In this document: in pieces, positions 480-45,348 of the stretch
How positions within the stretch are numbered: position 1 is the stretch's first letter
Layout of the letters: every line of letters starts with the position of its first letter
Origin: Jimgerdemannia flammicorona
Taxonomy: Eukaryota
Length of the DNA stretch: 64,000 nt
Direction: 5' to 3'
Assembly (NCBI GenBank): GCA_003990765.1
Contig: RBNJ01000005.1
Coordinates: 1-64,000, forward strand
Notes under the pieces: generated by a model
What the model saw: only the letters and a program-made list of their open reading frames with translations
Databases searched by the model: none
Told to the model about the DNA's origin: nothing
Made by a program: the position numbers and the translations under genes

Positions 480-2355
480 TATTCTGAGAGACATAGTGAT
501 GTAAATGATATTTTTTAATATCATTTTCTGCATTGGCCAATACAAGTCCCTTTTGATATGCATTCATATATTTTTGTGAATGATATGCATATTTTCTAAT
601 TGTAATAAGATCAACAGAGGCCAAAGCTTTTGGAATATTCTGCTTTAGTCCAGTCTATGTATAATTGTAATGAGTTCCAAATATTATAATTATAATTTAA
701 TAATATATTACATACCTGCAATACTTTTTTACACTACTCCAAAAATATTCAATATAATTGAGTTCACAATGAAACTTAGGATAAAAAATGCATTTATGAT
801 CCAAGTTTTCAATGACTTCTTGAACAAGTGACTTCTGTGCTTTAAAATCTTCTTGAAGAGATAGAATTTGTACTGTACAACAATCTTCTGTCTTGCATTT
901 TTCTTTGCATTTTCTTCTTAAATCTTCTCTCCAAAGATTTCTTTCTTTAAGTACTTGTTTCAAGCCCTTTGCTTTACCATGCAGTTTAACAATTTCATAT
1001 TTTGATAAAAACATCATTTCTTGAGTGATATTGTTAAACTTTGTAGTTCTCATAAGTGGCTGTTTTCCACTAGGTCCAAGGTTCATCTTGTGAGCAAATA
1101 AAGCATCTGATGCATATATTGAATATCCTTGACTATGATCAAATGCAAATATTGCTACATAGTTAGGATAAATAGTATTGAAAATTGGAATAGCTTGGTC
1201 TTTAATCTAATAATATAATATTAATTTATATATTAAGTTTTTTTTTATTTAATCTATTTACTAAATTTAATTATTATTATAAATATACATATGTATCTAA
1301 TCTATTAGATCATTTTCAGTTCAATAACTTTTCTTAGCTTTTCCAATTTCGAGTAGACAATAAGCTTCTCTTGGAGGCTTTGGACTCTTCATATCTTTAT
1401 ATTGTTCTTCAGATATAGCCAACCTTCTAACAGTATTTAGTAGAAAGTCACTAACCATTATACTAGCACCTCTACTTTTTTTTCTTAGAGGAAATTGTCC
1501 TTTTGGTCCCCATCCATAGTTTAGATCATCATTAGAATTGAAAGAAGCCTCATAATGTGTCACCAGAATATATTGTTGTCCAAGAGGAATATTATGTTGT
1601 AATGGTTGAAAATCTTCATCATATTGAACCATAAATGGTTTCCAGTCAGCCATCTGCTTTAAAAATTGTTCACGAGATACTTTGACATCATCTCTTTCAT
1701 GACCATTAACATAAAGTCCTTTTCTATGCCTACTGTAAGTATAGCCCATCTTTAGCATCTATCTTCTTACTATATCTTCATGAATTTTTATAGATTCTAC
1801 TGATATTGACAAAATCTCTTCTTCTAAATGTTTTTTAAGAAATTTTGGAATAGTAGTAAACTTATTCTTTTCTAAATAAGTTTTAACTATAAGTTTAATG
1901 TTTTTATCTTTAAGACGACTTTTCTTCTTAGTATGTTTTCCTTACTGAGAGATAGGAAGAGTTCTGTTGTTAATCCAATCTTGTGTCCATCTTCTCAAAA
2001 ACTTTGTATAGTATAAGCCTTTGTTGATACTTTCTACAATTAGTTGACTAGCTTGAGAAGCACTCTTATTATTATTTCTAAATACTATATATTGTGATAT
2101 ATGATGATATTTTAGAATATAATTTAGAGATAAATTCTCTAAACTCTTCATGTGAACTTTAAGTGCAGTAATGTGAGGCTCCCAGCTACTATCAACTTTT
2201 TTATCTTTGTCTTTATCATCATCTTCATCATCTTCTTTATCATTATCTTCGTCATCATCACTATCTTCATCTTTATCTATATTCTCATCTTCTTCTTCCT
2301 TATTATCTTCATTATCTTCATTATCTTCATCTTCTCTCTTATTATCATTATCTAT
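480..2355 (-). pseudogene. Decayed fungal IS630-Tc1-mariner-type DDE transposase
   Basis: Collinear fragments GLYVNGHERDDV, LVTHYEASF, RGASIMVSDFL (1321-1758), FAFDHS (~1135-1152), KGLKQVLKER and FYPKFHCELNYIEYFW (697-1086); stops, AT-rich intron-like gaps, acidic low-complexity tract at 2190-2355; ends approximate, TIRs not found. Confidence 0.75.
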
Positions 2356-2959
2356 TGTGACGTTGGTTATGTATAATGAACTTCGACTGCATGGCTCAAT
2401 GGTGTCACTTGGTGAAGCACGCGATGTATAACTGAAGGCGTTGGTGACGTTCGCGGGTTGATGGTCACGTGACAGGTCGTTTGATTCATGCGATAATAGC
2501 GGGAAAATGGGTTTGATGGCTCACTCGTCCATCTTGACTTGTTAGGTGAATGACGACGGTGCTGGCTTTCCTAAGCTAAGTATCCTTGGGTTCCTTGTTC
2601 TGGTTCAATGCACGGCTCAGTCTTCTGGTGGCAGCTAACTTGGCGGCAAACTCAGCGATGACGGTCTTGACTTTAAACGGTTCGTGGCGCAGTAGGTCGG
2701 GAATCGGTCGACAGCTCGCTTGTCCGTTTTGTTTAGCTTGAAAGGGCGGGATAACTTGGGTCTTTGGCGGTCGTTCGGGTATCTTGGCGGGTCTTAGGCT
2801 ATGGTCTTGTTTGGCTGGGTATCCTTGGGTTTCCGGGTCTTGAATCTCGAATGGCGGTCGAATGCGGGGTCCGAATGGCGGTCCGAATGGCGGTCTGGTC
2901 TTGAATCCTTGGCTGGGTCTCAGGTCTCGAATGGCGGCGGTCAGGTAACGTTTTCTTTC

Positions 2960-3785
2960 CATGGCAAGAGAAAATTCTTTAACTCAAACTTCCGAGCAAT
3001 CCGTTGCTCTAGGTTGTTATCTTGTTCTCAGAATTTATCCGGTCTCTTGGAGGCAGTGTGTTTTCTCTGTAAAACTATCTGGCTGACTTGCGGGCGGTCC
3101 GTGGTCTTGAATCCTTTTCATGGCGGCAAAACTTGAAATTCAGGTGACAAGAGAAATTCCTTAACTCAAACTTTCGAGCGATCCGTTGCTCTAGTTATTT
3201 TGTTCTCGGAATTCCGTTCTCTTGGAGGCAGTGTGTTTTCTCTGTAAAACTGTCTGACTGACTTGCGGGCGGTCCATGGTCTTGAATCCTTTTCGTGGCG
3301 GCAAAACTTGAAATTCGGGCGGCAAGAGAAATCCCTTAACTCAAACTTTCGAGTGATCTGTTGCTCTAGTTATTTTGTTCTCGGAATTCCATTCTCTTGG
3401 AGGCAGTGTGTTTTCTCTGTAAAACTGTCTGACTGACTTGCGGGCGGTCTGTGGTCTTGAATCCTTTTCGTGGCGGCAAAACTTGAAATTCAGGTGGCAA
3501 GAGAAATTCCTTAACTCAAACTTTCGAGTGATCCGTTGCTCTAGTTATTTTGTTCTCGGAATTCCGTTCTCTTGGAGGCAGTGTGTTTTCTCTGTAAAAC
3601 TGTCTGACTGACTTGCGGGCGGTCCGTGGTCTTGAATCCTTTTCGTGGCGGCAAAACTTGAAATTCGGGCGGCAAGAGAAATTCCTTAACTCAAACTTTC
3701 GAGCGATCCGTTGCTCTAGTTATTTTGTTCTCGGAATTCCGTTCTCTTAGAGGCAGTGTGTTTTCTCTGTAAAACTGTCTGACTG
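2960..3785. repeat. Tandem array of ~4.7 x 175-bp units in the R/U5 part of the solo LTR
   Basis: 'aaacttgaaattc' recurs at ~3130, 3305, 3480, 3655; units nearly identical. Confidence 0.92.
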
Positions 3786-3820
3786 AGGTTTATTCACTCT
3801 AAGAATATGGGTTATTTATA
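3786..3820 (-). promoter_or_regulatory. TATA box and AATAAA poly(A) signal of the solo LTR
   Basis: Minus strand reads TATAAATAAC...AGAGTGAATAAACCTC; same arrangement in family B LTRs. Confidence 0.6.
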
Positions 3821-3944
3821 CAAGTTTGCTAGCTATGGGGAGAGGGGGCACAACTAAGGCTAAGGTATACTACATTGTGGTGAACTTATGCTATTGGTTT
3901 GCACGATGCGAGGTGCAGGCTATTGTTTACTACGGATTGGGTTG

Positions 3945-4160
3945 TAGGGGATAGCAATGCTGGATTCAGACCTGCTGACAAAATGCTGAAAACGGTGGTA
4001 CTGGGTAGCAATGCTGGATTCAGATGAGCTGACATGATACGATGATTGTTGCCAGAAATGGTTGTGGAGGGTGGTAACACTGAATTCAGACCTGCTGACA
4101 AAATGCTGAAAATGGTGGTACTGGGTAGCAATACTGGATTCGGATAAGCTGACATGAGCT
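3945..4160. repeat. Imperfect ~55-65 bp tandem repeats in U3 of the solo LTR
   Basis: 'tagcaatgctggattcaga..gctgaca' recurs about 4 times. Confidence 0.8.
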
Positions 4161-4187
4161 GGGTTCTCACAGCTGATGGGCGGTACT

Positions 4188-5249
4188 CTAGAGGAAATAG
4201 TACCCTTCGTCCGTGGCAGGCAAATCTTGCCGGGTTGTGATTTCTTCTTCATCATATCTCTCCTCAAAAGGGGGAAGCGCCGGCCAAGAGGTGAGGGGGT
4301 AGAAAAGTGGCCAGTCATCTTCAACAATATTCTCCAACCCTTGAACAGCTTGAATGTGGACAGAGGACTGGTAGACTCTCTGTTGCTCCTCTTCTTCTTC
4401 TGAAGGCTCGTCAGTTTCAGTGTCAGAGGGGGTTTCTTCAGGGGCAGGGTCTTGGAGTTCTTGGGCCTCCTCTTCAAAGACAGGAACTTCTTGGGCTTCT
4501 TCTTGATTCGGTTCCCAAATGATGAGGTGTGAATTGTGGCTAACAGGGTGGTGGGTGGTTGGGGTAGCTCCAACAGGTGTCTCTATAGTGATGGGCAGTC
4601 CTTCAAATATCTCCATAAGACTCATTAGGTGACCTTGATGGTTGCCTCGGAGCGGGGTGGTGTGGAAACCTGGCTGAGTAGGTTCGGTTTGTTGGCTTCC
4701 TACAGCGACGCGGTTGCTGCCAATAGCATTGGCTACTTCAGATTCTATCCAGTCAGCATCTTCAGTTGAAAGGTGGGAGAGGCTGCCAGCTGTTACTCCT
4801 TGCAAGTGTGCTATAGCCCAGGGAATATGGCGGAAGATTTGATGGACACGGAGGGCTCTCTTGATTAGCCGGCTAGTGGTTATCAATTCGGTAATGAGGC
4901 CTTCCCGGTCATCTTCTTGAGTCTCATTGCGAAGGCGGTGTCCGATTTCATAGTCATGCCAGAGGGTCATTCGTTCGGTAGTGTCTTTGAGCTGTTGGGT
5001 CATTATATACTGGTAGTTGATGAAGTGTCCAAGGTCCTCAGTGTAGAAGTTCAGGTGTTCAGAAGTATCTGGGCACCAGATGGCCTTCTTGATAGCTTCA
5101 AAGATCAGGGTCTTTGGGCCAGGCAAAGGGGTAGAGCGGCGGGAGGTCTGGTTGGATCGGCGAATAGGAGGCATTGTGTAGTGGGTACTTGGTTCTTTGG
5201 TGCTGATCCCTGAGATGGAGTATGGTTCCTTAAATAATGTGGTCTTCAT
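4188..5249 (-). CDS. Intact 353-aa accessory protein of unknown function inside the solo LTR (U3)
   Basis: ATG-to-stop uninterrupted ORF; core YEIGHRL...ALRVHQIF...IAHLQGVT and long acidic C-terminus. Confidence 0.75.
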   Translation of the reverse strand: MKTTLFKEPYSISGISTKEPSTHYTMPPIRRSNQTSRRSTPLPGPKTLIFEAIKKAIWCPDTSEHLNFYTEDLGHFINYQYIMTQQLKDTTERMTLWHDYEIGHRLRNETQEDDREGLITELITTSRLIKRALRVHQIFRHIPWAIAHLQGVTAGSLSHLSTEDADWIESEVANAIGSNRVAVGSQQTEPTQPGFHTTPLRGNHQGHLMSLMEIFEGLPITIETPVGATPTTHHPVSHNSHLIIWEPNQEEAQEVPVFEEEAQELQDPAPEETPSDTETDEPSEEEEEQQRVYQSSVHIQAVQGLENIVEDDWPLFYPLTSWPALPPFEERYDEEEITTRQDLPATDEGYYFL

Positions 5250-5569
5250 TTTGACTCAGATCATCTTGTCTTCTTTTGGGATGATCACCTAATGGGTCAG
5301 GCTGTCTATTTGATTGTCACGCCATTATGTCATCTGATCTTAGCAGTCACCGGTACTCCGTTGTCAATTGCTTATGTCACACTATATTATAATCATAATT
5401 AGAATTATAATTAATATATTATTAATATTATAAATATTTATATACCTATAATTTCTTCCTCAAGTTTATAATATCTTAAAACTTGTAAGTGTTGGTTTTA
5501 TTTAGCTAGTCTTGGTATTTTGTTATAACTAAAAAATATAAATTTAATAATTTAGTAAAATCTATAGAC

Positions 5570-5953
5570 CTATCTTATCTCAATCATCTATCCAGTCCCA
5601 TCTTGTCTCAATCATCCATCTCATCTCAATTGTCTGTCTTGTCTTGTCTCAATTGTCCATCCATCTTATCTCAATCATCCATCTGTCTTGTCTCAATCAT
5701 CTGTCTGTCTCATCTCAATTATCCATCAATCTTGCCTCAATTGTCTGTCCATCTCATCTCAATCATCCATCCATCTCACCTCAATCATCCATCTATCTTG
5801 TCCCAATTGTCCATCCATCTTGTCTCAATCATCCATCCATCTTGTCTCAATTGTCTGTCCATCTCATCTCAATCGTCCATCTGTCTTGCCTCAATTGTCT
5901 GTCTGTCTCATCTCAATTGTCCATCTATCTCATCTCAATCATCTGTCTGTCTG
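5570..5953. repeat. Second block of the same minisatellite as 1-330
   Basis: Same 'tctcaatcatccatc / tctcaattgtctgtc' units, same orientation; cut by the LTR at 5954. Confidence 0.9.
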
Positions 5954-7437
5954 TGTAAGAGGGTTGCTTTTTAGGGTAACTGTTACATAGTTCTGAAAGG
6001 GTTTTCTGGAAGTTCTGAATATTCTGGAAGACTGTTTTCTTATGGTCAAGATCAATTTTGTATGGAGTACATCCTCTACACTTATTGATTTCAAGATCGG
6101 GTTGATGTCTCAACCAAAGTCCTTTCTCAGACTAGTTCTGGATGTTCAGGATTTTCCATATTTCAGGAAGTTCAAGAAACTAAGACCAGCTTAGTTGAAT
6201 TGGCGTATCGCTGCAGACAATACCCAATTAGGAAATTTCGTGATGGGGTTAGGAGTGGGACCTAACAGGGAGTGGATTTACTTAAGAGTAGTTTGTGGGT
6301 TATTAAATAGGTTTATTTGCTATTCATGATATTGCTATACTAGGAGTATTTGTATGAAGAGATATTGTGGGGAAGTGCTCAGGAGTTGTGTTCAGATTGT
6401 TCAGGTCTGAGATTCTGAGGTCTGGGGGAGGGGGTATTTATACTAGTGAGGGGCTATCTGGGCTATGCTAGATATGGATGTAGCACTAAGTGCCTTGCTG
6501 AGTCGGAATACAGTCACATAGTATAAGTGTGATCTGACATATCAAGAGATCATCTGACTGCTGAGTCAGTTCACAGTCACATCATACAAGGCTAATCTAT
6601 CTATACTATGACTGCTAAGCTATTTATAGATTTAGGTGCTGTCTGGTTAGTCTTTAATGACATCACTATTGATGACATCATCGCTGGCAAAGTCTGAGCA
6701 GTTTTCTGACTTCTGATATCATCAGTTTCAAGATGTCGTCACTTCTATCTCTTGCAAGATTAAGGCTATCCTTGGTGGTGGTGGTTGTACAAGGATAACA
6801 GGTCTTGGTTCTCTTTTTTTTTGGTCTGCTGGTGTATTTGTGAGGACTGGCCATTCTCGTCTAGGGCGAGGGCTCCCAATGTTGCAGCTGGGGGTTCGAA
6901 TCTCTCAGAAATGATATTTTCTATAATCTGAGGCAATTTCTAGTAGTAATATCTATCACATGGATGGCTTGAGATTGGTTTCGATATTGTCGGCTTTCTT
7001 GAGTTCAGATGAAATGTCCATCACTCTCCAATGGAGGTAATACAGATAGAGCAAATGGAGTTGTTCAAATGTGTTTTGCTTCTGCTAAGTAATGAGGTCT
7101 TGTATAGCTGTGGTGTATCCTGGTCTTGAGTTGATAAGTACAGTTTGTGAACCTTTTGGTAGATGAGATAGGGTTCTTCTTATCTCAATTTGAGTTTGGT
7201 ACTTTCGGTTTCCCTTTGTAATAGTACAGTATACCAAACTAGTTATAGCAGTTCAGAGTCAGTTTTATCGTTATAGGACTTCTTCTAGTATTCTTGTATC
7301 TTGGTGGTGGGTTCTCGTGCTTGCTGGCATATTTCATATAACCAGATGATCTCTTGTTTTGTAGTCTCGCATATGGTTTTCGAATTAGTTCTGAGGATGC
7401 CATGCGATTTTGGTGGCTTGGAGGTTGTGCGCTTACA
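5954..7437 (-). repeat. 3' LTR of A1 (1,484 bp, short-U3 type)
   Basis: TGTAAG...CTTACA termini; reverse complement of 10661-12144. Confidence 0.95.
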
Positions 7438-9867
7438 ACTCTCCCCTTCTTAGCTTTTGACATCCTTGTTGGGGCCTTCTAATTTGTTCTGGTGTTGTTG
7501 TACCATTTGGATGGTTCTTGTGGCTGTATTTGTTGAGGATTTGTTCAACTTTGTATTCTTCTTGGTCATTAATGATGATAGGTGCAAGTGGTTCTGTAGT
7601 TCGGTTCAGAAATATGTCTTGGACCTTCTGGAGTAGTGGTCTGACATGGCTGTCAACTTTGGAAAAGTCTTCTTCAGAGTTCTCAGGTTCTCCTTTGGAT
7701 GGACAGATGGAGATAGCAAAGAGAGGGCATTTCTTGGCTAATTTCTTGAGTTGTAGCTTGTTGATGTGGGTGATCCTTGGTCCAGGGTCACTAGAGTTGA
7801 GTGGGTCCTTTTTGCCTTGCAGCTTGAAGTTGTGGCGTCCTTTCTTGATGGTCAGAGAATGATTTACCCAATCGATCATAGGGTTCTCTTGTTTTAACCA
7901 TGGAGTTCCAAGGATGATTTCATTGTCAGGGAGTGGTATGATCTGGAGAGTAACATGTACTCGATAGTCACCAATTCGGAAGGGTAGATTGTGGACTTCC
8001 TTGCTAATAACATGGGAGGTTCCATCAGCTGTAGCAACTGCTTGAGTTTGTTATACCAGAGAGGTGAAGACCTTGAGTCTATTGGCTATTTATTCATTGA
8101 TGAAGTTGCCTGAGGCACCACTGTCTATCATAATCTTGACAGGTGCTCAGTTGATAAAAGCCTTAAGTGTAAGCAGTTTGTCTGATCCAATGGTGGTGAT
8201 TTCGGTTGTAGGAACTTTCCTTCTGTTGGTTCTTTTTTGAGCCAGTTCATTGACACAAGAGAAGCAATTATCAATCATTCGGAAAGAGTACATTCCAATG
8301 CCATGGGGACATTGGCCACTTGGTACATATCCATCTTCGATTTTCTTATAGAATTGTTCTTCTTTATTCATGGTAGCTTGGGCTGGGGCCTTGTTTAATG
8401 AGCCAAATCCTTTGGATCCTCAGATGGTAGTAGCAGTTCAGAGACTTCCTTGACTGTCAGAGTTGACTCAATTTTCTCGAATAGGATCTGGGCAATGTAA
8501 AAACCTATGGGAATCTTGAAGGGTGTCCAACTATGATTTCGGATGAGGACAATAATTTCACCTGTGTAATCTTCGTCAATGACTCCTCCTTCTACTGAGA
8601 GTCCTTTCAATGCTAGGCTGCTGTGATAGCATATTCTTCCAATATGTCCTTTGGGGATTTGGATACTGATTCCTGTGTAGACTTGCTTGACTTCTCAGTT
8701 GGAAACTGTAGCTTCTTCGGCGGCATACAGGTCATATCCAGCTGCTTTTTGACTTCCTTTGGTTGAGGCCTTAGCAGTTTGTCTTAACTTGACAAAGTCC
8801 AGTATTCTGGTGGTCAGATTGTTGAGGTAGTGCAGAGTGGTAACAGTTGCTCGTGTTGCTGTTCGGGGTTTTTGGTTGGGGCAGGCACTGGCCATGTGTC
8901 CTGTCTTTTGGCAATAGAAGCATGCTCCGCTTCTTCGAAGTTCATTCCTTTCTCCTTCAGTGAGTTTCTTGAAGGTACTCGGCTGGGTGGGTTCATGATT
9001 TCGGGGTGTCCAAGAGGTGGATGTTGAGGGAGCTCGGGATGCTTCATGCTTGGGTTCTTCTTTTTTGGTCCAAGTCTTTTCCTTGTTGTTGAATTGTCTT
9101 CAGGGCAGAATTGGTCCAGCTGTTAGAATTTGTTTGACCATGGTCTTGATTCTTACCAGGCACCATTGTTGGTGATTGCAACCAACTGGGCGGCCTTGTT
9201 CACGGATTTTTCTGGTAAGCCATTCAGGTAGTGCATTGAATAGGTGGTCTGCTCTTGTACCATTTCGTGCTTCATCATTGGCAATGTATCCTAGGCCAAT
9301 GGTGTTCAGGAGTGACTCAAGTTTTGTACAGAAGGTTTCGAATTCTTCTTTGCCATGTATATCAAATTTGAGGTTGCAGAGTTTTACTCGAGATTCAGCA
9401 ATCATGGTTTCGCTGCGGTATTGAGCAATCATAAGTTGTTTGAGTCCAGGGGCTGCAGGATGGGCTCCATATCCTGGGGCATTATTTGCTGCATTCTGAG
9501 CAACTACTGCAGGTTGGGTGTCCCATGTGAGGAGTTTTTCAGGAAGGGTTCCCCACCATTCTTCGGCGGGTCCTCGGAAGAATGTAACAACTCGGCGGAC
9601 ATAGGCTATAGTGGTAGCAAAGAGTTGTTCCAGAGTGTGGTCTTGATTGTTTATCAGAACACGGTCAGTAACTCGCTCATTGGTCCATTGATTGGCTTCG
9701 AAGTTGGTGTCAACTTTACTAATGAAGCTTTGGACTTCTTGTGCAGTACTATTGAAGGTAGATAGGCTCAGATTTTTGGTAGGTTGGGTCTGTTCGGCTA
9801 AGGCAGTAATGGTTGCTGCCATTATGGCTACCTGGGCTGTAAGGTCTAGAATTTGTTGGTTCGCCAT
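7433..9867 (-). pseudogene. gag-dUTPase-protease-partial chromodomain of A1
   Basis: Gag MANQQILDL; CCHC knuckle; dUTPase AAGYDLYA and GVIDEDYTGEI; protease IDSGASGNF; EEYKVEQILNK; scattered stops. Confidence 0.9.
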
Positions 9868-10660
9868 ATTGTTTACTAGAGGCAGTTGGACTGCTGGTAG
9901 TGGTGTTACTGGTACTACTTGAGGTACTGGTGCAGAGTGTGAGGGTGTTCTTTGGGTCTATATAAGTTGCTGGAGTAGTATTTGTGGGTCTGGAGTAAGG
10001 GCTTGATAGATAACCATTTGTTGTTGTGTTGGTGTGTTCTGGCCTGATGGAGGTGCGTCTCCTTCAGTGGTGTATCCGGGATCGAATTCACTGAGATACT
10101 CCTCCTCTTCTTCGGTTTGGTCCCCATGTAATTGGGTTTGCTCGGCATCAAAGTAGACAGAGTCAGTTGTATATCTGATTTCGGAAGGACTTAATTCAAA
10201 GTCAAGTTCTGGTTCTGTATTAGTTTCAGATTCAGGTAGGGCAGTGGCAGGGCCTGCTTCTGGTTCAGGATCCGGTAGCTGGTGAAGGGTTTCTCTTGCT
10301 TCTTCTTTAAGAATATGGCGGGCCTTGCTATTCTGGAATTAGTAGTATAACGCGGTCTTGGTCCTGGTACAGTGAAAGTTGGTAGAGTTGAGCCACTTGG
10401 CTACAGAGGCTTGGGCTTCATGAGGAACTAAGACTAGAAAGACTGCTGCTGGTTGTCCTAGGTTGCTTGGATTTGTAGAGCTGACAAAACTCTTGTTGAG
10501 AAGAGTAAAGAAGGCTTCTATAAGACCTTCTTCATCTTGACTTGCTGGGTGTAGTGCAAGGAGTTTGGTGAATAGGGTTTCACCTATTTGCTGGTTTAAT
10601 TGGAGTACTTCTTTCTTCAAATGAAGTTTGTCCCACTTGTTGTAGGTATGGAGGTCAAAT

Positions 10661-12144
10661 TGTAAGCGCACAACCTCCAAGCCACCAAAATCGCATGGTA
10701 TCCTCAGAACTAATTTGGAAACCACATGCGAGACTACAAAACAAGAGATCATCTGGTTACACAAAATACACCAGCAAGTATGAGAACCCACCGCCAAGAT
10801 ACAAGAATACTAGAAGAAGTACTACAACCATAAGACTGACTCTGAACTGCTATAACTAGTTTGGTGTACTGTACTATTACAAAAGAAAACCGAAAGTACC
10901 AAACTCAAATCGAGACAAGAAGAACCCTATCTCATCTACCAAAAGGTTCACGAACTATACTTATCAACTCAAGACCAAGGTACACTGCAACTATACAAGA
11001 CCTCATTACTTAGCAGAAGCAAAATGCATTTGAACAACTCCATTCGCTCTATCTGTGTCACCTCCATTGGAGAGTGACGGACACTTCATCTGAACTCAAG
11101 AAAGCCGACAACGTCGAAACCAATCTCAAACCATCCATGTGACAGATATTACTACTAGAAATTACCTCAGATTACAGAAAATATCATTTCCGAGAGGTTC
11201 GAACCCCCAGCCGCGACATTGGGAGCCCTCGCCTTAGACGAGAATGGCCAGTCCTCGCAAATGCGTTAGCAGACCAAAAAAAAAGAGAACCAAGACCTGT
11301 TATCCTTGTACCACCACCACCACCAAAGACAGCCTTAATCTTGCAAGAGATAGAAGTGACGACACCTTGAAACTGATAATGTCAGAAGTCAGAAAACTGC
11401 TCAGACTTTGCTAGTGATGATGTCATCAATAGTGATGTCATCAAAGACTAACCAGACAGCACCTAAATCTATAAATAGCCTAGCAGTCATAGTATAGATA
11501 GATTAGCCTTGTACGACATGACTGTGAACTGACTCAGCAGTCAGACGATCTCTTGACATGTCAGATCACACTTGTACTATGTGACTGCATTCTGACTCAG
11601 CAAGGCACTAAGTGCTACATCCATATCTAGCATAGCCCAGATAGCCCCTCACTAGTATAAATACCCCCTCCCCCAGACCTCAGAATCTCAGACTTGAACA
11701 ATCTGAACACAACTCCTGAGTACTTTCCCACAATATCCCTTTATCCAACTACTCCTAGTATAGCAATATCATGAATAGCGAATAAACCTATTTAATAACC
11801 CACAAACCACTCTTAAGTAAATCTGCTCCCTGTTAGGTCCTACTCCTAACCCCATCACAAAATTTCCTAATTGGGTATTGTCTGCAGCGATATGCCAATT
11901 CAACTAAGCTGGTCTTAGTTTCTTGAACTTCCTGAAATATGGAAAATCCTGAACATCCAGAACTAGTCCGGAAAAGGACTTTGGTTGAGACATCAACCCG
12001 ATCTTGAAATCAATAAGCGTAGAGGACATACTCCATACGAAATTGATCTTGACCATAAGAAAACAGTCTTCTAGAATATCCAGAACTTCCAGAAAACCCT
12101 TCCAGAACTATGTAACAGTTATCCTAAAAAGCAACTCTCTTACA
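10661..12144 (+). repeat. 5' LTR of A2
   Basis: TGTAAGCG...CTTACA; TATAAATA at ~11657; AATAAA at 11781. Confidence 0.95.
10726..11370 (+). pseudogene. Possible decayed ~215-codon ORF in U3 of short family A LTRs
   Basis: ATG at 10726, frame unbroken to TGA at 11370; five internal stops, each one C>T from a sense codon, but largely shared between copies. Confidence 0.35.
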
Positions 12145-12147
12145 ACT

Positions 12148-12156
12148 TGGTAGCAG
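12148..12156 (+). promoter_or_regulatory. Primer-binding site, initiator tRNA-Met type
   Basis: TGGTAGCAG 3 nt after the LTR end; also at 17183-17191 (-), ~49445 (decayed) and 61659. Confidence 0.8.
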
Positions 12157-35122: not shown

Positions 35123-36482
35123 TGTAACATGCTGGCTCAATGGAGGCAAATTACAAGGTTGGGGGTTGATGTAGTTTAGCTTGAGCCCCCAGTTACTTTG
35201 TCAAAAAGCAACAAAATGTTCTAAGATTCCTGAGGTCCTTGGTGTTTGGTGGTATAATAGTCAAAACTAGATATCTGCGAGCAGTTTCCTTATTGGGACT
35301 GTTCTCTGGGTATAGCAGCGATTTGTATCTTTCCTTCTTAGGTCAACTGGGAATGGCGGAATTTGTGTAGCGTGACAATCTTGTATGTGACAGTCTGGCA
35401 ATTTAGCAGTTCTCCTTATGCGATTTCTGCATGACGATCTCTGTGTAGCGTGGCAATTTCTGTATAGCACAGCGGATTCCTTATGCAGGATGATCTTGGC
35501 GAGATTCCTTATGCAGGATGATCTTGGCGAGATTCCTTATGCAGGATGATCTTGGCGAGATTCCTTATGCAGATTTGGCGGACAACTCGATTTAGCTCAC
35601 TGGGAATTATACTGACATGGTTTCTTCTGTACCAGGCTCACTGGGAATAACAAATAATTCGAAGGTTGCAGATTCTTCCTGAATCAGTTGGCTTCTGAGA
35701 ATAATAACTCAGGTGGCGAGGATCGGGTTCTTCTGGGAATGTGGATAACTCGAAAACGGCGGGTGATGCGGATTCTTCCTGAATCGACTTCAACTGGGAA
35801 TACTACTCAGATTCTTGACAAGTTACATCAAAGACTGGCTTCGTTTGTGCGGGATTATGTCATAAACTGGCTCCACTGCGAAGTTGCATCAGAAAGACTG
35901 GCTTGTGGCAAGAAAGGCGGGCTCTCTGGGAATATGGCAGAATGGCGAAAATCTTCAGGCTTATCTGGCAAGCGAACCAATAACGTGGCTTATTCCTTAA
36001 GCGGCGGGTTTCTCAAAAGGCAGCGAAGTTCTCCTTGAACTAGGTGGCAAATCTTCAGGCTTTGTATCAGAAAGTGGACCAGAGTGGAAAAGAGGACCAA
36101 TGCTCACAATCTCCTAACAGTGGCTGTAGAGTTCCTCTTGAAGTGTGGTAGGCAGACTTGTCTTTTACTTTTGGATTCAATTTCGGACTGAGGTTTATTC
36201 ACTCTTGTCTCTGGGGTAATTTATACATTGTGGTTGCTATCTGGTTGCTATCTGACTAACTATAGAATGCTATTTATGGGGTGACATTCACTGTCAGGGT
36301 GATAGCTGCTATCAGGGTGACAGCTACTATCAGGGTGACAGCCACTGTTCACATTATTTCCTTCTTTGGCTATCTAGTTATTTATACATTTTCCGCAGCA
36401 ATGGTTGCTGGTTACTATGCTGTACTAATGTTCATGTCACCTGGTTGGGTTTTGAGATTGCTACATTTTGTGGTTCATCACA
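35123..36482 (-). repeat. 3' LTR of family B element (1,360 bp)
   Basis: TGTAAC...ATCACA; 28-bp tandem at ~35475-35572; 18-bp tandem at ~36290-36345. Confidence 0.95.
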
Positions 36483-36521
36483 TCAGCCCCCACTAAAGGG
36501 TAGTCTGTCTCAGACTATCCT

Positions 36522-37028
36522 TTAGTCATCATTCCAATGAGCATAGGCATCTTCTGCATCTATGTCTATTCCATCATCTTCATTGTCTGTACTGGGGTCA
36601 CTCCATTCTAACTCTGAATCTTCCTCTTGTTCCTCAGGAAACAGGATGTCTACTTGTTGAAGGATACTCTGGAAGGTGGTCTCATTCATCTGATGGATAT
36701 CATTGAGGTGGAAGTGGGACTGCACCAGGGCTCCAATGTTTCGTTTATATAGAGTGTAGATTCATTTGGCAGTTCTTGCTTCTCTGAGAGTAATTCCAGC
36801 TGGGCTCCTTATGTAAGGTTGTTCTGTCAATAGCTGTCCAATGTTGTAGAAGGCTTATAGATGGTGGATCTGAAGCAACCTTTGGGCAATGGCAAGGTTC
36901 TCTTGATGCTTCTGGATCAATTGTATGGGGGTTCCTTCAAGTTGGTGAAACTGGGGCAGGGGAATTGGCAGGGCTTGGAAGGAGCTGAGGATGAGGGTCT
37001 GGAGGCGTTGATCTATCCTCTGAGTCAT
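36522..37028 (-). pseudogene. Accessory ORF3 (169 codons) between integrase and PPT
   Basis: MTQRIDQRLQTLILSSFQ...AFYNIGQLL...IYTLY...DAYAHWNDD with two internal stops; homolog at 24771-25285. Confidence 0.75.
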
Positions 37029-40000
37029 GGTTTGTGCAGGTATATCTTGAGGTGATTGATGTGGACTGGTGTCCTCAGGGTTCATCCATCCATGCTTCTT
37101 AAATAGATGCTGGTTCCTCTGATGTTGTGTACAAGATAAGGTCCTTCCCATTTTGGTTTCAGTTTGGCAGCAAAGTTTATTTCTATCATGCTTCTCCAAA
37201 CTAGTACTTGGTCTCCAATCTTGATCTCCTGATCCTTTTGTTTCTGGTTATAATATTTCTTTTGTCTTTCTTGGGCTTTGATAATCTGACCTCGGGCTTG
37301 ATTAAGTAACTGTTCTGCCATTTTGAGGAGGTCTTCGAGGTTCTCATGGTCAGTAGCTCTGGTTTTCTTAGCAAACATTATTTCAAATGGCTTTTGTTTG
37401 GTGGAGGCAGCAGGGGTGTTCCGAATTTCCCATAGGATTTCAGATAAGCAGAGGTCCCAATCAGTAGGATTGACTCGGGTAAGTCCTCTCTTGATGGTCT
37501 GGTTCATCCTTTCTGTCATGCCATTGGTCTGAGAGTGGTATGATGTGGTCCGTTTGAGGTGGATCTTGTAAATTTGGACATAACTTGTGATTATATTGTT
37601 GATGAATTCTGTGCCTCAGTCAGAGATGAGTTCTTCTGGGGGTCCATATCTGAGTGTGAGTCCATGAAGGAGGCCTACAATGGTTAAGGCATCTGCGATT
37701 TCTATTGAAAAAGCCTTGGGCCACTTGGTCAGATATTCCACAAATATAAGGATATATTTGTTTCTTCTTGGTATAACTGGTAGAGGTCCAATTACATCTA
37801 CTCCCTCCCCATCTCTGAAAGATGTTGCTTGGTGGTATGATTGGTTGCAGTGGTGCTTGATAGTTCTTCTTTCCTTGGTATTTCTGGCATATGTTACATT
37901 TCTTGAGTATGTCCTGGACTTGTGTTCTGAGTTTGGGCCAATGTTGGTATGTTGTTCACAGCTTCTCTTCTATATTCGCCTGTCCCTGGTGGGCTTTCTG
38001 ATGTTCTTTTCGAATGAGATCTTCTTGTGCCTTGATGGTCTGAGGAGCTTCCTTTAGGGTGTAGTTCCTCAGGACACCCTTCTTCTGGTTCATTGGGACT
38101 GCCAGGAAAGTACATCAACATTGTTGTGAGCTTTCCCTGCTTTGTGGATGATGGTGATTTTGTAATCCTACAGAATAAGGATCCAGCAGGCTAGGATTTC
38201 AGTGGGTTCCTTGTGGTTGAATAACCATTTGAGGGCTGCATGGTCTGTGATCAGAGTGAACCTTTTTCTGATGAGGTAATGCTTGAACAGGGTGACTGCC
38301 CATATGACTGCAAGGTATTCCAGTTTGGTGCTACCATAGTTCATCTGTTGCTGATTGGTAGCTCTGCTTGCATAAGCTATCATATAGTGCTGTTGGTCAG
38401 GTCCTTCTTGGGCTAGAACTGCTCCGAGGCCATCTTTAGAAGCATCTGTATATAAGATGAATGGCTTCTGTAGATTGGGGTGCACAAGGATTGGTGCTGT
38501 AGTCATGTGGTTCTTGAGTTCTTTGAAGGCTTTTTCTTGTGATTCTGTCCATTTGAATGGTACCCCTTTCTTAAGAAGGATTCAGATTGGGGCAGCGATT
38601 TGGGCAAAGTCCTTGATAAACCTTCTGTAGTAGGATACTAGCATCAGGAATGATAGTATTTCCTTCAGGGTCTTGGGTACTGGCCAATTGTTGATCTTCT
38701 CAGTTTTCTTTGGGTCTGCATGAGTTCCTTCTTTTGAGACTATGAATCTAAGGAATTCAAGTTTCTGTTTCCCAAAGTAGCATTTCTTTGCATTTAGTCT
38801 CAGGTGGTTTTTGTGGGTGAGCTTGAAGAATTTCTCTAGATAGTGCAGGTGTTCTTTGAAATTTGCTGAATAGATGTTGGAATCATCCATATATACAATC
38901 AGGCAGTGGTGGATCAAGGGGGTATAGACTGAATTCATCATCCTCTGAAAGGTGGGGGGTACATTGCAAAGTCCAAAGGGCATTCGGAGGTACTCAAACA
39001 GTTTTCCTAGAGCAAGGAAGGCTGTCTTTTGAATATCTTTGGGGTCCATGGGGATCTCATGGAATCCTGCAAAGAGGTCTATACTGCTGAAGTACCTGGT
39101 GTCTTATAACTGATCCAAAAGGTCATCAATTCTGGGCAGAGGATAGGCATCCTTTTCAGTGACTGAATTGAGTTTCCTGTAATCCACACAGAGTCTCCAT
39201 CCTCCTTTCTTTGGTACAATAAGTATAGGACTGGCCCAGGGGCTGGTAGAGGGTCGGATGACTCCATTGTCTAAGAGTTCTTGAATATGCTCCTTTTCGA
39301 ATGTTTTCAAGTGATTGGGTATTCTATAGGGTTTCTGCTGGATGGGTGTTGCATTTCCTGTATTTATGCTGTGGTGATATGATGGGTTGTATGGTAGGTT
39401 GCCATAATCGGTGGTGAAGATATCTTGATATTTGTTGAGAAGTTCTACTAGTAGTTACTGTTGTTGGGGTGTCAGTTCTTCTCCAATGTTGGTGGAAGGC
39501 TTCACTGTCTCCTGGGTCGCAGAGGGGCCTTTCCTTTCTTCTGGGACCTTTTTCCATTTCCTGATAGGTTTAATTCATAAACTTCCCTATGAGTTCGGTT
39601 GAGAAAAGGCACCAGATGTCCTATGATGGTTCCTTTCGGCAAGATGATAGTTTCCCAACTTTGGTTGGTTCCTTGGAAGTGTACTGGATTCATCTTGTCA
39701 GGGAATGTGTGTCCTTCTATATCCAGGTGTGGGATATCTTCCTTGGGTTCAAAGAAAAGGTTTCTGGGATTGGGTGGTGCAAAGATTTCGAAGGTGGTTT
39801 GTTCTCCAGGCTCCAGGATAAGGTTCTTGTGCTGTCTGACTGGTTGGCAGTATACTTGCTGGGGGGCATTCTTCTTGAGGTGGTTGACTTGAAGGAGATG
39901 TACTTCCTTCTTGTCTGAGCTTTAAAATCCCTTGGCTTGTCTTGTTCCTTCAGTCAGTTCGGACACTTCTTGCAATTGTGGAGTTCTGGCCTTCATGAAG

Positions 40001-43000
40001 ATTGCTTGGGCAATCTTCTGTCCTCTAATGATTCAGTGCCATTCTGTACTGCTGTTGTGTAAGATAACCTTGATTTCGCCTGTATATCCTGGGTCAATGG
40101 TTCCTTCTTCTACCGTTATTCCCTGTCTGGTAAGTCCAGACCTTGAGGTCAGTTGGATGTAAGTTCCTTGAGGTGGCTACATGGCTAGTCTGGTTCTGAT
40201 CATGAATGTTTTTCTGGGCTTGATGGACTCATCTTCCAGACTATGAAGATCATACCCTACATCCTCTAGGTGGGCTTTGGTCGGGAGTTTGGCCATGGGA
40301 TGCAATAGGGCATACTGGGCAATGTCCTTACTGAGTTCCGACTTTCCTAAGGCTGAGGCTCCACTAGCAGAGAGCCTCCAGGCTCTGAGGTTGAGATATG
40401 GCCATCTGGCTCCAGTAGAGGGGTCTCAGAGATAGTTGATTCCTCTTCTTCCTGTAGGGTCTAGAGCTTCTATGAAGTTGGTGGCATCTTCTGCCCATCC
40501 TTGGCAGGTTGCATATCTGATGAGAGCTAGGATATCTTCTCCCAAATCATAGATCTTGAGGATTCTTCTTCCTGGCTTCTTGGTCTGGCTTTTTCAGATC
40601 TGGCCTCTGTTATCTTCTTTCTTCAAGGTGTGGACTGCAACATCATGACTGAGATGGATCTTCTGATGCCTGCAGTCTCGGCAGTCTGGGTGTCTTCCAT
40701 GGTTGCAATATCCCATTGCTTGGAAATGATGTTCCCAGTTATTGATCTCTTATTGTCTTGGGAATCAGTACCCATCTTGATCGTAGGTTGGGGGAAGGGT
40801 AGATAAGGGGTATATGTCTGTTTGGGTGAAGAAGCCTTGTCCTCTAAATCGACTTTGTAGCCTTGTGGTAACTTCTTGAAAAGTGGTTGACTGTGCAAGT
40901 GTAGTTGATAGTTCTGGTCTCTGGGGTCTCTGTCTTTCTTATTGGTCCAACAGGTGATACTGGTAGCAGTAGTCTCGGGGAGAGTGGAAGACCATTTGGT
41001 GTGGACATCTTCCTAATTGAAAAGCTTTTTCCTGATGAGTTTCTTTCTTGGGGATAATGGTGATTGTACTGGGTCCCTCTTCGGTATTCCAAGGATCATT
41101 GTCTTCAGGTGGTGTCCAGCAAAAGTCATCCCAGGGGATGAGTTCAGGGACCTCTTCTTCTTCAGGTGCTTCCTGTTCAGGAACTTCTTGGTCAGAAGTT
41201 TCTTCTTCCTCGGATGATTCTTGACCCCAAATTGCTTGTACTTCTGCAGCTTCGGTTGCAGGTGTTTCTGGAACAGGTCTGCATTTCTTCTTCTTCTTTC
41301 TACACTCTGGGCAGGCTGCGCCAGGTGATTTCCTTGTTCCCATGATCTTGGAGGAATGCTCAGGACACTTATGTCTCTTGAGGTAGGTGGGGCATCCCTT
41401 GATTTCTCCTGCAATGGCTCCAATGGTGATGGGAATGGTGTTCTTGGCCCACACATTGTCTTCTGGTCTGTTATCCACCATATTAATTTGGGGACTGAGT
41501 CTGGGATCATTTCCATCTTCCAATTCCTCTTCCTCCTCTGTGGTAGACTCTTCACTACTGGCATATTCCTCCTGAATAGTAACCTTCTTCTTCTTCTTTG
41601 ATTGCTCATAGCTGGTCACCTTAATACTGTACTTCTTGCCTCGATAGTCAAACTTGAGTACTTGTTGAATGATGTCAACAACTGCATTCATTTCCTTCAT
41701 CCAGTTGGTGCCAAGGATCATGTCATAGGTGACAGCTTCAGTGACAATGGCTTTGGGAATAGAAAACTGAATATGTCCCAGGGAAATGGTGATGTTTCGT
41801 ACTTCTCCAAGGGGTTGAGTTCGGGCTCCATCTGCTACTATGATGCTGAGGTTGGATGGTCCATCAATGGGCCATTGGAGGGTGTTCAGGAATCATTTGG
41901 CAATAACACACACAGCTGCTCCCGTATTGATGAGGATTTTCACCTTTTGTCCTCCAATATCTCCATGTAGGTAGGTGCTGACATGTCTTTCAGCTGCTTG
42001 GACAGAGATGGGGGCTGGTTCTTGCTGTGGGATTGGGACCTGGCCAGTGCTAGACCTTGTTGTTCTCAACAATTTGTTTCGAACTCCAGCTGGTGTCAGT
42101 TGCAGGAACTGTAGGAGAGGGACTTCCATCTTGGCCTCTGAATCTTCTGCCAGGCTTCATTGTAGATGTCTCTGGGTATAGTCTTTGGAGAGTACTTTTT
42201 CTTGGGCTTCAGGGGTATAGGTTCCTGTTCTTCTTGTTCCATTTCTTCATCTTCTGGTGGCAGCTCATTTGTTTCAGGCACAAATAGTGAGGGAGTTTGG
42301 GGAGGTATTTCTACCTGTTCCTCCTCATGCTCTTCGTCTTCTTCCGGGATCATTCTTCTGCTGACATTTCTGGATGGTCTTCCTATAGGTCTCTTCCTTT
42401 TCTCTGCTGGATAGACTGTTTTTCGGGTAGTAACCTTGGTAGGGTACAAGTCTAGGTCACTATAGTCTTCACTGTTGCTTGCTTCCTCGAAATCTTCAAC
42501 AGGATGGGCTTCAGTCTTCTTATACTGGGTATCACTTCTTCGGTTTGGTAGTTCTGAGTCCCTTCGGTCACTTCTTTTGTTGTCACTTTCAGTGGCATAG
42601 TATCTGAATTGTCCACAGTGGAAATATTGGACCTGTGCTCTGTCTTGGACAGGGTACCTTCTTTCTTCTTGGTGGTAATTCCTGTTATCTCTTGGTGAAT
42701 AACCTTGGCTCCTCTGTGGTGGGTATCCTCTGTTATCTTGATAGCTCTGGTTTTTGCATGTGGTGAGTTTTTCAATCTGTCCAACCAATTGGTCCAACTT
42801 AGAGCTAAGGTCTTGGATCTCGCTTCTGTCCTTCTTTCCTTCCTTGGCTGGCCTTCTTTCTTTGGATCTTTCTTGTCCTTGAAGGAGTCCTTGTAGGGCT
42901 TTGACCAGGATGTCTTCTTTATCTTCTTTCTTGTCATGATCACTCTAAGTAGTTCCTTGTCTGACATCGAAGAATCCTTGGGCTGCATCTACTTGCTCTT

Positions 43001-43487
43001 CAGACCTTCTGATATCCAGGGTGCAGACATACTGGGCAATGTTTGGGGGAATTCCATTCATGAAGGTTATTGGACCTATGATGTCCTGGTTGGTGGCATT
43101 GAATCCAACAGCATGCATTCTCTTCTGGATTCTTGTGAAGAAGGCTCTGGGTGATTCTCTGAGATTCATCTTCATCCCCATGATGGATTCTTGGGCCTTG
43201 TGGCGGGTTTCATTTCCTGCATACTTTTCAATAAGCCAGTGAACCATGGCCTCATATTCTAGCTCATCAGACATTGCTGCTTGTATCTGTCTTGCCAGTT
43301 CTGAATCTCAGTCATTTGCTGTTTGGTGGAAAATTCCTCTGGCTGGTTCTCTGAGCTGAGCCTTGTAAATGGCGATTTTTCTTTCATCTGAGAGATTCCT
43401 CAGGGCTGCGATTCCTTTGATTCTGTCAAGGAACTCTCTGGGGTCTTCTCCTGAGTATCCTGCAAAGGTTGGCAATGAGGTGGCCAT
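37025..43487 (-). pseudogene. gag-pol of family B
   Basis: Gag LPTFAGYSGEDP; protease ILINTGAAV/ILGTNW; dUTPase; [50 protein letters not shown]; no chromodomain. Confidence 0.93.
39925..40320 (-). pseudogene. dUTPase domain of family B pol
   Basis: DVGYDL, SRSGL, GTIDPGYTGEIKV, KIAQAI, RQAKGF: the five trimeric dUTPase motifs. Confidence 0.9.
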
Positions 43488-44024
43488 TTCATTATCACTT
43501 TCTTCTGATTCTGGTTCTGGTTCAGATTCTGATTCCAATTCTCTTTCTGAACTATCACTAGAGATGAGAGCACTTGGGTATCTTGAGGATGGTGTTCTGG
43601 ACCTTAGATGAAGTGGAATAGGCCTGGGTATTCTTGTAGGAGCTACTTCTGACTCTGCAAGAGGTTGTGGTAAGGGTTCTATTAGAGAGATTGGTGGGAC
43701 TGGTATGGAGTGTCTGGCTGTAAGGTCTTGGGTTCATATGATAAGATCTTCTAGTTCTTGTGCAAGTTCTGTGAAATCTCTAGTAGGGCTGCCTGTATTT
43801 CTGGTTGATCTGGTTCAAAATTTCAGGCTGTACTGCCTTCTGGTTCTGGTTGGGATCCTTCTGATGCTGGGTAGTTGGTGAGTCTTGAGGTGATTACTTC
43901 TCTTCCTGTCCAGATACTAGTAATAACTAGTTCTCCTGTAGTAGCAGAGATTGATGTTGTATCAAATGTATCCAGTTTGACTGTGGGTTCTTGTAAGTTG
44001 AAAAGTCATGTCAATTTTGAAATC

Positions 44025-44042
44025 TTCTCAGTTGAGCCCCCA
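44025..44042 (-). promoter_or_regulatory. Primer-binding site, tRNA-Pro type
   Basis: TGGGGGCTCAACTGAGA after the 5' LTR; matches the tRNA-Pro PBS start TGGGGGCTC. Confidence 0.75.
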
Positions 44043-44044
44043 AA

Positions 44045-45348
44045 TGTAATGTGCTGGCTCAATGGAGGCAAATTACAAGGTTGGGGGTTGATATAGTTTG
44101 GCTTGAGCCCCCAGTTACTTTGTCAAAAAGCAACAAAATGTTCTAAGATTCCTGAGGTCCTTGGTGTTTGGTGGTATAATAGTCAAAACTGGATATCTGC
44201 AAGTGGTTTTCTTATTGGGACTATTCTCTGGGTGTAGCAGCAATTTGTATTTTTCCTTCTTGGGTCAACTGGGAATGGTGGAATTTGTGTAGCATGATGA
44301 TCTTGTATTTGACAGTCTGGTAATTTAGCAGTTCTCCTTATACGATTTCGGCATGACGATCTCTGTATAGCATGGCAATTTCTGTGTAGCATGGCAGATC
44401 CCTTATGCAGGACGATCTTGGCGAGATTCCTTATACGGATTTGGTGGACAACTCAATTTTGCTCACTGGGAATTATACTGGCATGGTTTCTTCTCTATTG
44501 GGCTCACTGGGAATAACAAATAATTCGAAGGTTGTGGATTCTTCCTAAATCAGCGGGCTTCTGGGAATAATAACTCGGGCGGTGAGGATCGGGTTCTTCT
44601 GAGAATGCAGATAACTCGAAAACAGCAGGTGACGTGGATTCTTCCTGAATTGGCTTCAACTAGGAATACTACTTGGATTCTTGGCAAGTTACATCAAAGA
44701 CTGGCTTCATTTGTGCGGGGTTACATCGTAGACTGGCTCCACTATGAAGTTATATCAGAAAGACTGGCTTGTGGCAAGAAAGGCGGGCTCTCTGGGAATA
44801 TGGCGGAAGGGTGAAAATCTTCAGGCTTATCTGGCAAGCAAACCAATAATGCAGCTTATTCCTTAAGTGGTGGGTTTCTCAAAAGGTGGCGAAGTTCTCC
44901 TTGAACTTGGTGGCAAATCTTCAGGCTTTGTATTGGAAAGTGGACCAGAGTGGAAAAGGAGACCAATGCTCACAATCTCCTAACAGTGGATGTAGAGTTC
45001 CTCTCAAAGTAAGGTAGGCAGACTTGTCTTTTGCTTTTGGATTCAATTTCGGACTGAGGTTTATTCACTCTTATCTCTGGGGTAATTTATACATTGTGGT
45101 TGCTATCTGATTGCTATCTGACTAACTATAGAATGCTATTTATGGGGTGACATTCACTGTCAGGGTGACAGCCGCTGTTAGGGTGACAGCTACTATCAGG
45201 GTGACAGCCACTGTTCACATTATTTCCTTCTTTGGCTATCTGGTTATTTATACATTTTTCACAGCAATGGTTGTTGGTTACTATGCTATACTAATGTTCA
45301 TGTCACCTGGTTGGGTTTTGAGATTGCTATGTTTTGTGGTTCGTCACA
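44045..45348 (-). repeat. 5' LTR of family B element (1,304 bp)
   Basis: Direct repeat of 35123-36482 minus two 28-bp units. Confidence 0.95.

Follow-up and report, generated by a model that had tools for sequence, protein, structure and literature searches.

A probable solo LTR of a Ty3/gypsy-type retrotransposon in Jimgerdemannia flammicorona with a complete gene probably placed within its U3 region

This report concerns a 3-kb unit near the left end of contig RBNJ01000005.1 of Jimgerdemannia flammicorona (assembly GCA_003990765.1), which very probably is the solo long terminal repeat (LTR) of a retrotransposon and which contains a long open reading frame (ORF). The unit was analysed within positions 1–64,000 of the forward strand of this contig, a stretch of 64,000 nucleotides referred to below as the window. 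Table 1 lists the parts of the unit and a related element of the same window. The terminal inverted repeat is perfect for 6 bp (TGTGAC at 2356–2361 and GTCACA at 5376–5381), and base 7 is unpaired. The ratio of observed to expected CpG is 0.72 for the whole unit, 0.42 for its ORF and 1.16 for its 3′ part, whereas the repeat segments elsewhere in the window range from 0.00 to 0.52 and the flanks lie near 0.1. The solo LTR has escaped the process, either similar to repeat-induced point mutation (RIP) or driven by methylation, that hit the AT-rich gypsy copies elsewhere in the window. A first-pass annotation made from the letters alone had described the 6-bp terminal repeat with the CTAT duplication beside it, the retention of CpGs, and an uninterrupted 353-aa ORF upstream of a TATA box in element sense; all of these are seen in the sequence.

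Table 1. Coordinates of the unit, its parts and the related element in the window (TSD, target-site duplication; PBS, primer-binding site; U3, R and U5, unique 3′, repeat and unique 5′ regions of the LTR).
Feature	Position	Strand	Basis or remark
Solo LTR (very probable), 3026 bp	2356..5381	-	5′ end at 5381, 3′ end at 2356; termini TGTGAC...GTCACA
TSD CTAT, left copy	2352..2355		Sequence flanking the unit
TSD CTAT, right copy	5382..5385		Sequence flanking the unit
5′ end of the putative U3, 132 nt, six sense TGAC motifs; candidate promoter or regulatory array	5250..5381	-	Motif count
Putative gene for a 328-aa protein (MPPIRR...YYFL + TAG)	4188..5174	-	Homologue alignment, searches
54-bp repeats, 3.5 copies, between stop codon and TATA box; possibly enhancer-like position	3952..4154	-	Repeat search
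Conserved core block, putative U3/R/U5 junction	3778..3836	-	Shared with the LTRs of the element at 35123–45348
175-bp tandem array, 4.7 copies (94% matches), downstream of the core block; putative U5	2963..3786	-	Repeat search
3′ part of the LTR, CpG-rich (1.16)	2356..2962	-	Ratio of observed to expected CpG
Ty3/gypsy element ('family B' of the first-pass annotation)	35123..45348	-	LTRs, TSD, PBS, Pfam order

The ORF lies on the minus strand (5249 to 4188) and comprises 353 aa from its first ATG, or 355 codons from stop to stop, a length that was reached in 0 of 1000 simulations (two sets of 1000 first-order Markov sequences of 3026 nt, with maxima of 297 and 309), so that the uninterrupted frame is longer than anything the simulations produced. 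The second ATG, at 5174, aligns with the start of the homologous proteins described below, from which the 25 upstream codons, counted from the in-frame ATG at 5249, are absent; because the homologues share this start, ATG 5174 is most likely the true initiation codon, giving a protein of 328 aa. Stop-to-stop frames of at least 150 aa number 24 in the window, and only a 466-aa frame at 32278–33678 is longer than the ORF of the unit. The earlier statement that this is the only intact long ORF of a transposable element (TE) in the window is thus roughly right: the longer frame resembles a host gene, and the other TE frames reach at most 317 aa, with the pol genes fragmented. No further copy of the ORF was found in the window, where 24 family proteins match only the unit in tblastn (next best E = 0.006, over 36 aa).

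The assignment of the unit as an LTR is based largely on its relatives in public sequencing runs. Words of the unit recur in twelve runs that belong to 7 studies (best share 0.34), none of them recorded as RNA, and contigs of 4 of these runs were placed on positions 2000–5800 at a likeness of at least 85%, with cover missing in places, chiefly within the 175-bp array. One of the runs, X4, may be RNA, but its contigs over the ORF are 85–95% alike and of low depth and say nothing on expression. Runs X1 and X2 come from one study and are labelled soil metagenome, so relatives of the unit occur in runs bearing this label. The contigs of the relatives break exactly at the two ends of the unit, 2356 and 5381, with a consensus agreement of 1 at both. 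The loose ends at 2356 read ...TTGAAAACTTTCCCAGTTGAGCCCCCAAAA (3 contigs in X1 and 1 in X2, the latter extending 245 letters), and those at 5381 read TCTGCCCCTTGCAAAATTAGAGCC (5 contigs in X1 and 1 in X2). In minus sense, the LTR end of the relatives is followed by TTT and then by the PBS-like sequence TGGGGGCTCAACTGGGAAAG, and the LTR start is preceded by the polypurine-like sequence GCAAGGGGCAGA; 24–30 letters of internal flank are visible. The PBS, which may be akin to that of murine leukaemia virus, a PBS of tRNA-Pro type, matches the window once, at 44042 to 44023 with 3 mismatches (0 of 100 shuffles matched), and this match sits 2 nt past the 5′ LTR of the Ty3/gypsy element listed in Table 1. 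The polypurine tract (PPT) pattern of the relatives has no match within the window at up to 3 mismatches, and no tRNA genes were found in the window.

Since these flanks look like the PBS and PPT of a Ty3/gypsy-type element, the whole 3026 bp would lie between PPT and PBS, with the minus strand as element sense; the ORF is therefore in sense. One X2 contig (contig 15) unites the N-terminal part of the ORF (5076–5249), the LTR 5′ end and the PPT flank in a single piece, which indicates that the ORF-bearing LTR is the 3′ LTR in a relative. In the window, the flanks of the unit are AT-rich repeats without PBS, PPT or gag-pol, and blastn of the unit against the window returned its self-match only, with no second copy and no adjoining internal region. 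As neither PBS nor PPT stands beside the unit and the TSD is kept, we assign it, with high confidence, to a solo LTR, in line with the first-pass annotation.

That annotation had also named a transposon with terminal inverted repeats, or an internally deleted element, as what would speak against an LTR. Such an element, or a fortuitous arrangement in which the ORF too arose by chance, would suit a unit that occurs in a single copy in the window and has an inverted repeat of just 6 bp, but it would not account for the PBS-like and PPT-like sequences that adjoin the exact ends in relatives and match the gypsy element of the window. In addition, the unit has tandem arrays only and no terminal direct repeats, no transposase domain was found with Pfam, and the ORF has homologues and a length not reached by chance. 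The outcome favours an LTR, the paired parent being glimpsed in relatives only, and we regard a unit that is not an LTR as highly improbable.

The related element is 10.2 kb long, with LTRs of 1360 and 1304 nt that are 88% identical, ends TGTGA...TTACA and the 4-bp TSD ATAG. Its PPT, GTGGGGGCTGA, adjoins the LTR start TGTGATG, and its domains follow in the minus-strand order RVT_1, RT_RNaseH_2, Integrase_H2C2 and rve_3, the last a weak match (E = 7e-4) that falls short of the Pfam cutoff; the reverse transcriptase (RT) is broken. The unit shares with this element the TGTGA start, the 4-bp TSD, a PBS of the form TGGGGGCTCAACTG..., a similar PPT, the core block, and the motif CCATTGAGCCA near the LTR 3′ end (in the unit, within 2356–2962). 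The element differs in that its LTRs are 1.3 kb long, have the block close to their start, contain no ORF and are otherwise unalignable with the unit; the family proteins have no tblastn match in it at E ≤ 1e-3. From the likeness in PBS, PPT and core block, the parent of the unit would be of the Ty3/gypsy type, with the pol domain order being read for the related element and the unit's own parent visible for 24–30 nt only.

Between the PBS and RT of the related element lies an interval of about 4.5 kb (39500–44022, minus strand) with open frames of 120–317 aa without a Pfam match, for example 40942–41892 and 42099–42944. This interval is longer than a usual gag and may hold further unknown genes.

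Inside the unit, the first 132 nt of the LTR contain TGAC/GTCA 7 times against 0.9 expected. The sense copies start at 5379, 5366, 5349, 5332, 5319 and 5299, with a spacing of 13–20 nt, and the same stretch holds a 2-codon upstream ORF (ATG ATC TGA) on the minus strand. Together with the 54-bp repeats, the TGAC array provides candidate control sites. The ORF ends 368 nt upstream of the TATA box TATAAATA, which is located in the core block at 3820 to 3813; AATAAA follows 26 nt later, at 3794 to 3789, about 400 nt past the stop codon. The block occupies positions 1546–1604 of the 3026 nt of the unit and 243–300 of the 1304 nt of the related LTR (59–60 nt, 76–78% identity), and it includes a 20-nt exact match in each of the two related LTRs, 35123–36482 and 44045–45348. 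The TATA/AATAAA block that the first-pass annotation had described as common to the unit and family B is thus found again, and, termini apart, it is the only similarity between the unit and these LTRs. The core block has the highest depth in the placed runs, and loose ends mark its limits at 3783 and 3837/3840, which suggests that it is common to many other LTR families in those samples. Further downstream, contig joints in the 175-bp array point to relatives with other copy numbers, and a 12-bp sequence is repeated four times at 2848–2895.

The conserved TATA box and poly(A) signal form the natural candidate for the U3/R/U5 junction, and the ORF, being upstream of this block, would then lie in U3. 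U3 would measure about 1.59 kb, compared with about 0.27 kb in the related LTRs, the excess being the ORF with its surroundings; R would be very short and located at the block formed by TATAAATA, 26 nt and AATAAA; and U5 would measure about 1.43 kb, mainly the 175-bp tandem array. We consider the placement of the ORF in U3 reasonably likely. The earlier claim to this effect stands as regards the sense orientation and the position upstream of the block, and the U3 border follows from the block by inference.

The concentration of TGAC motifs in the first 132 nt also fits a different layout, in which transcription would start from this array at the LTR 5′ end, the ORF would be the first cistron in an R or leader region, and the block would serve mainly as a poly(A) site; AATAAA about 400 nt past the stop codon would then be a natural mRNA end. 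In the related LTRs, however, the distance of the block from the LTR start is what a U3 of normal size would give, and TATAAATA again precedes AATAAA by 26 nt; the layout would need an R of about 1.4 kb and a bypass of the 5′ copy of the poly(A) site. We therefore consider an ORF in the leader distinctly unlikely and retain its placement in U3.

The family of the encoded protein was delineated by several searches. A word-indexed single-sequence search gave 2 homologues among 1191 candidates, an exhaustive HMMER search of 1.84 billion representatives gave 8 at E ≤ 0.001, and a profile search gave 12 at E ≤ 0.01 among 4796 candidates. With cluster members, the relatives amount to 23 proteins besides the window's own, all of them from JGI/ENA metagenome sources, and the only source name carried by any is 'hypothetical protein'. 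The family consists of a close group at 72–83% identity and several distant groups at 25–36%, and it divides into five subfamilies. Common to the groups are the start MPP..R, the motifs WH[DE]YEIGH, HQ[IV]FRH.P and F[EQ]GP, and an acidic tail, in which DLISF-type and P[LMW][VI]LNF motifs recur across the family. The contigs that carry homologues include one of 19,434 nt (P0012) and one of 4,848 nt (P0004). No relatives were found in the viral contig and genome contig collections, and no fused or longer forms were scored among 6838 candidates, the latter being weak evidence.

A scan of one metagenome collection returned a single DNA locus (L001, 1535 nt), which encodes a distant homologue of 35% identity. 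The locus carries, some 270 nt ahead of its ORF, a 94-nt stretch (positions 10–103) that is 65–70% identical to the LTRs of the other, dUTPase-bearing gypsy family (E = 5e-9), matching four LTR copies in the window at 11225–11317, 16102–16193, 6781–6873 and 18022–18114. A 33-nt imperfect direct repeat (170–202 and 1481–1513) is located on either side of the ORF of this locus. This single case hints that a distant homologue may also be housed in LTR-like DNA.

Frames that remain open and alignable at 25–36% identity point to selection on the protein, and this is the main argument for a functional gene. An X2 contig of 792 nt covers 4219–5010 with 18 differences and no gap. Synonymous changes account for 14 of the 26 best-supported variants of the ORF and, from codon 26 onward, for 13 of 22, where transitions would be expected to give about 33%; as 136 other variants across the whole stretch lie outside this subset, the synonymous count is weak. 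The 25 upstream codons hold 3 non-synonymous and 1 synonymous change among the same variants. Substitutions within the close group show no more than a trend to avoid columns conserved in the distant members (16 of 62 against 66 of 168; odds ratio 0.54, p = 0.064). The first-pass annotation had pointed to neutral evolution as what would count against the ORF; with intact homologues down to 25–36% identity and conserved motifs, the ORF does not look neutral, and we hold with good confidence that it is a real, selected gene.

The unit could also be a solo LTR in which the ORF is a passenger of no further use to the element, taken from the host by capture or transduction or else once located at the 3′ end of the interior and later engulfed by U3; it would be drifting and still intact because it is young. 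Neutral sequence would decay over the distances that separate the five subfamilies, which retain full-length or nearly full-length intact homologues down to 25–36% identity with the same motifs and acidic tail. The decayed fragments among the close homologues (P0005, P0007, P0008 and P0019, with R>C/W changes) and the non-significant test of recent constraint are in agreement with drift; the roughly 80% protein identity among close copies could suit near-neutral divergence, and the retained CpGs may mean that the unit is just recent. On the other hand, the synonymous excess among the best-supported variants speaks for constraint, and annotated genomes are absent from the sources of the 23 relatives, which would fit a repeat-borne gene better than a host gene. 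We judge a drifting passenger unlikely and prefer a selected gene.

Neither the ORF nor 6 homologues matched a Pfam-A family (E up to 1), NCBIfam gave 0, a PDB sequence profile search gave 0 at E up to 10, and PHROGs gave two matches (E = 0.09 and 0.15), both to families of unknown function. The first-pass annotation had suggested structure prediction; it yielded no usable fold, with a mean predicted local distance difference test (pLDDT) score from AlphaFold2 of 42.3 (12 sequences) and 52.8 (17 sequences, residues 26–275). In these poor models, helices run to roughly residue 190 (numbering of the 328-aa form), and a small sheet and a tail without order are predicted as well. Fold searches with the second model gave chance-level results (Foldseek best E of 1.3, VIA-align wide best Z of 3.7), and with models of this quality they show nothing either way. 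The net charge is −30 over residues 221–328, and the five homologue tails examined (residues 201 on) have charges of −13 to −25. At the other end, residues 1–40 are basic, with an isoelectric point of 10.3. The protein is thus a member of an unnamed family, with a helical N-terminal part, as modelled, and a very acidic tail.

The combination of a folded domain and, following it, an acidic tail that contains bulky hydrophobic residues is suggestive of a transactivator or of an adaptor to host factors. The foamy-virus proteins Tas/Bel1 are transactivators of about 300 aa that are encoded by a 3′ gene overlapping U3, have an acidic C-terminal activation region and act on the LTR. They serve as a working analogy for function, with no sequence or fold similarity found by Pfam, PDB, Foldseek or VIA-align, the last two with poor models. 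A transactivator of the LTR is our leading guess, made with low confidence.

LTRs are usually regarded as non-coding modules that supply promoter and terminator, and a solo LTR passes for an inert scar or a stray enhancer. LTRs with a long ORF in sense are documented for mouse mammary tumour virus (MMTV), with sag in U3, for primate lentiviruses, whose nef extends into U3, and for bovine foamy virus (PMC2664473), and the earlier remark that U3-encoded proteins are established in retroviruses is thereby documented for MMTV sag and lentiviral nef. The unit resembles these three in that a long sense ORF fills the 5′ part of its LTR and ends before the TATA/poly(A) core is reached; in this position the ORF of the unit would be duplicated with U3, as are sag and nef. 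It differs from these three, which are vertebrate retroviruses, in that the LTR is of Ty3/gypsy type and the gene appears to lie wholly inside it and to survive in a solo LTR. No homology to Sag or Nef was found, with 0 Pfam-A families at E up to 1 and no PDB sequence match at E up to 10.

The additional ORFs (aORFs) of plant elements and extra ORFs of the Cer1 type are located in the internal region. Plant aORFs and the CERV gene of Cer1 are like the gene of the unit in being extra genes of unknown or regulatory function beside gag-pol, commonly 3′ of pol, and unlike it in their internal location, since the ORF of the unit lies inside the LTR; the sequences were compared through Pfam alone. 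By analogy, the gene may have begun as a 3′ ORF that was drawn into U3 by a shift of the PPT. A review on plant aORFs contains none of the phrases 'in the LTR', 'within the LTR' and 'inside the LTR' (PMC7264820), and excerpts of another paper describe CERV of Cer1 in C. elegans and 'many 3′ ORFs of unknown function' (PMC10309623). The excerpted texts on crapaud LTR variants (PMC10787394) and on Salpingoeca TEs (PMC6875170) contain no LTR-housed gene, and in that on Candida Tca5 the gag start alone lies in the LTR (PMC4139406). The full-text literature that was searched, which leaves out most subscription journals, yielded no account of a gene housed in the LTR of a retrotransposon other than a retrovirus, whether from fungi or elsewhere.

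Overall, the probable explanation of the locus is a solo LTR of a Ty3/gypsy-type retrotransposon with a complete gene in U3. The solo LTR would have arisen by recombination between two LTRs, with the 4-bp target duplication being kept. Its U3 would comprise, in order, the 132-nt TGAC stretch, the gene for the 328-aa protein and the 54-bp repeats, after which come the TATA box and poly(A) signal of the LTR itself. Reverse transcription copies U3 to both ends of the element, so that the gene would be present twice in each provirus and once in each solo LTR. The gene may be transcribed from a promoter in the first 130–200 nt of U3, and polyadenylation at the AATAAA of the LTR would give an mRNA of about 1.4–1.5 kb; a solo LTR would stay a self-contained expression unit. 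In the full element, the gene could also be read off the 3′ end of the genomic or a spliced RNA in the fashion of sag and nef. The protein would most likely act in trans for the element, either as a regulator or as an adaptor by which host factors are brought in. That solo LTRs express the gene by themselves is a tentative part of this scheme that we consider less likely than not.

Several points weigh against this explanation. The borders of U3, R and U5 are drawn from a single conserved block, the implied U5 of 1.43 kb is unusually long, and a TATA box is not recognisable upstream of the ORF. No paired full-length copy was seen in the window, and the relatives show only 24–30 letters of internal flank. 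Recent purifying selection is weakly shown, the avoidance of conserved columns being a trend (p = 0.064), and several close homologues are short decayed fragments with R>C/H/W changes. Finally, the structure models are so poor (mean pLDDT 42.3 and 52.8) that the function is a guess.

The window around the unit is rich in repeats: gypsy and copia-type remnants are nested there, a Tc1/mariner-like remnant occurs as well, and old repeat copies are heavily hypermutated from C to T. Related tandem repeats of 18–22 bp (about 71% alike) flank the solo LTR neighbourhood at 4–344 and 5572–5993, and a Tc1/mariner-like DDE_3 remnant, below cutoff, is located in the left flank (700–1206, minus strand). 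To the right, 5952–10663 is an inverted copy of 12311–17022 (92.4% identity, head-to-head), and a 1.4–1.5-kb LTR is present in four copies (5954–7438, 10660–12142, 15536–17018 and 17021–18595); the region 5952–18595 looks like two truncated elements that are joined tail-to-tail or rearranged. A dUTPase domain (14123–14551, plus strand; E = 2e-32), another accessory domain, stands directly upstream of an aspartic protease (14555–15154) in this other gypsy family.

Hypermutated copies of the dUTPase-bearing gypsy family form AT-rich stretches in 45349–59000, with a GC content of 0.28 and an observed/expected CpG ratio of 0.00; this applies above all to 48727–52646 as compared with 11405–15369. 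C>T or G>A changes account for 653 of the 1004 differences, and the rate of C>T by context is 62% in CpG, 50% in CpA, 40% in CpC and 20% in CpT. To judge from the sequence, the hypermutation of old gypsy copies is a RIP-like or methylation-driven process. Copia-type remnants (28374–29293, plus strand), with matches to Pol_BBD, gag_pre-integrs and, weakly, rve, are embedded in AT-rich DNA that is devoid of CpG. The 466-aa frame on the plus strand, the longest in the window, has an F-box-like match below cutoff (E = 2.7e-4) and an observed/expected CpG ratio of 0.84, and it is probably a host gene amid repeats.

Taken together, our results would extend a design of a few vertebrate retroviruses, that of sag and nef, to a Ty3/gypsy-type element, and the LTR-housed gene adds an unnamed protein family, which genome annotation probably misses because repeats are masked. 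They also raise the testable idea that solo LTRs can go on making an element-encoded factor. A wider and speculative possibility is that a gypsy lineage moved a whole accessory gene into U3, with every LTR becoming an autonomous source of a trans-acting factor. If this were true, the factor might, for example, activate the LTR in trans or counteract silencing by the host, the dispersed, multi-copy supply of the regulator would outlast the loss of coding interiors, and the distant homologue in LTR-like DNA at L001 would mark an old, recurrent strategy and not a one-off capture.

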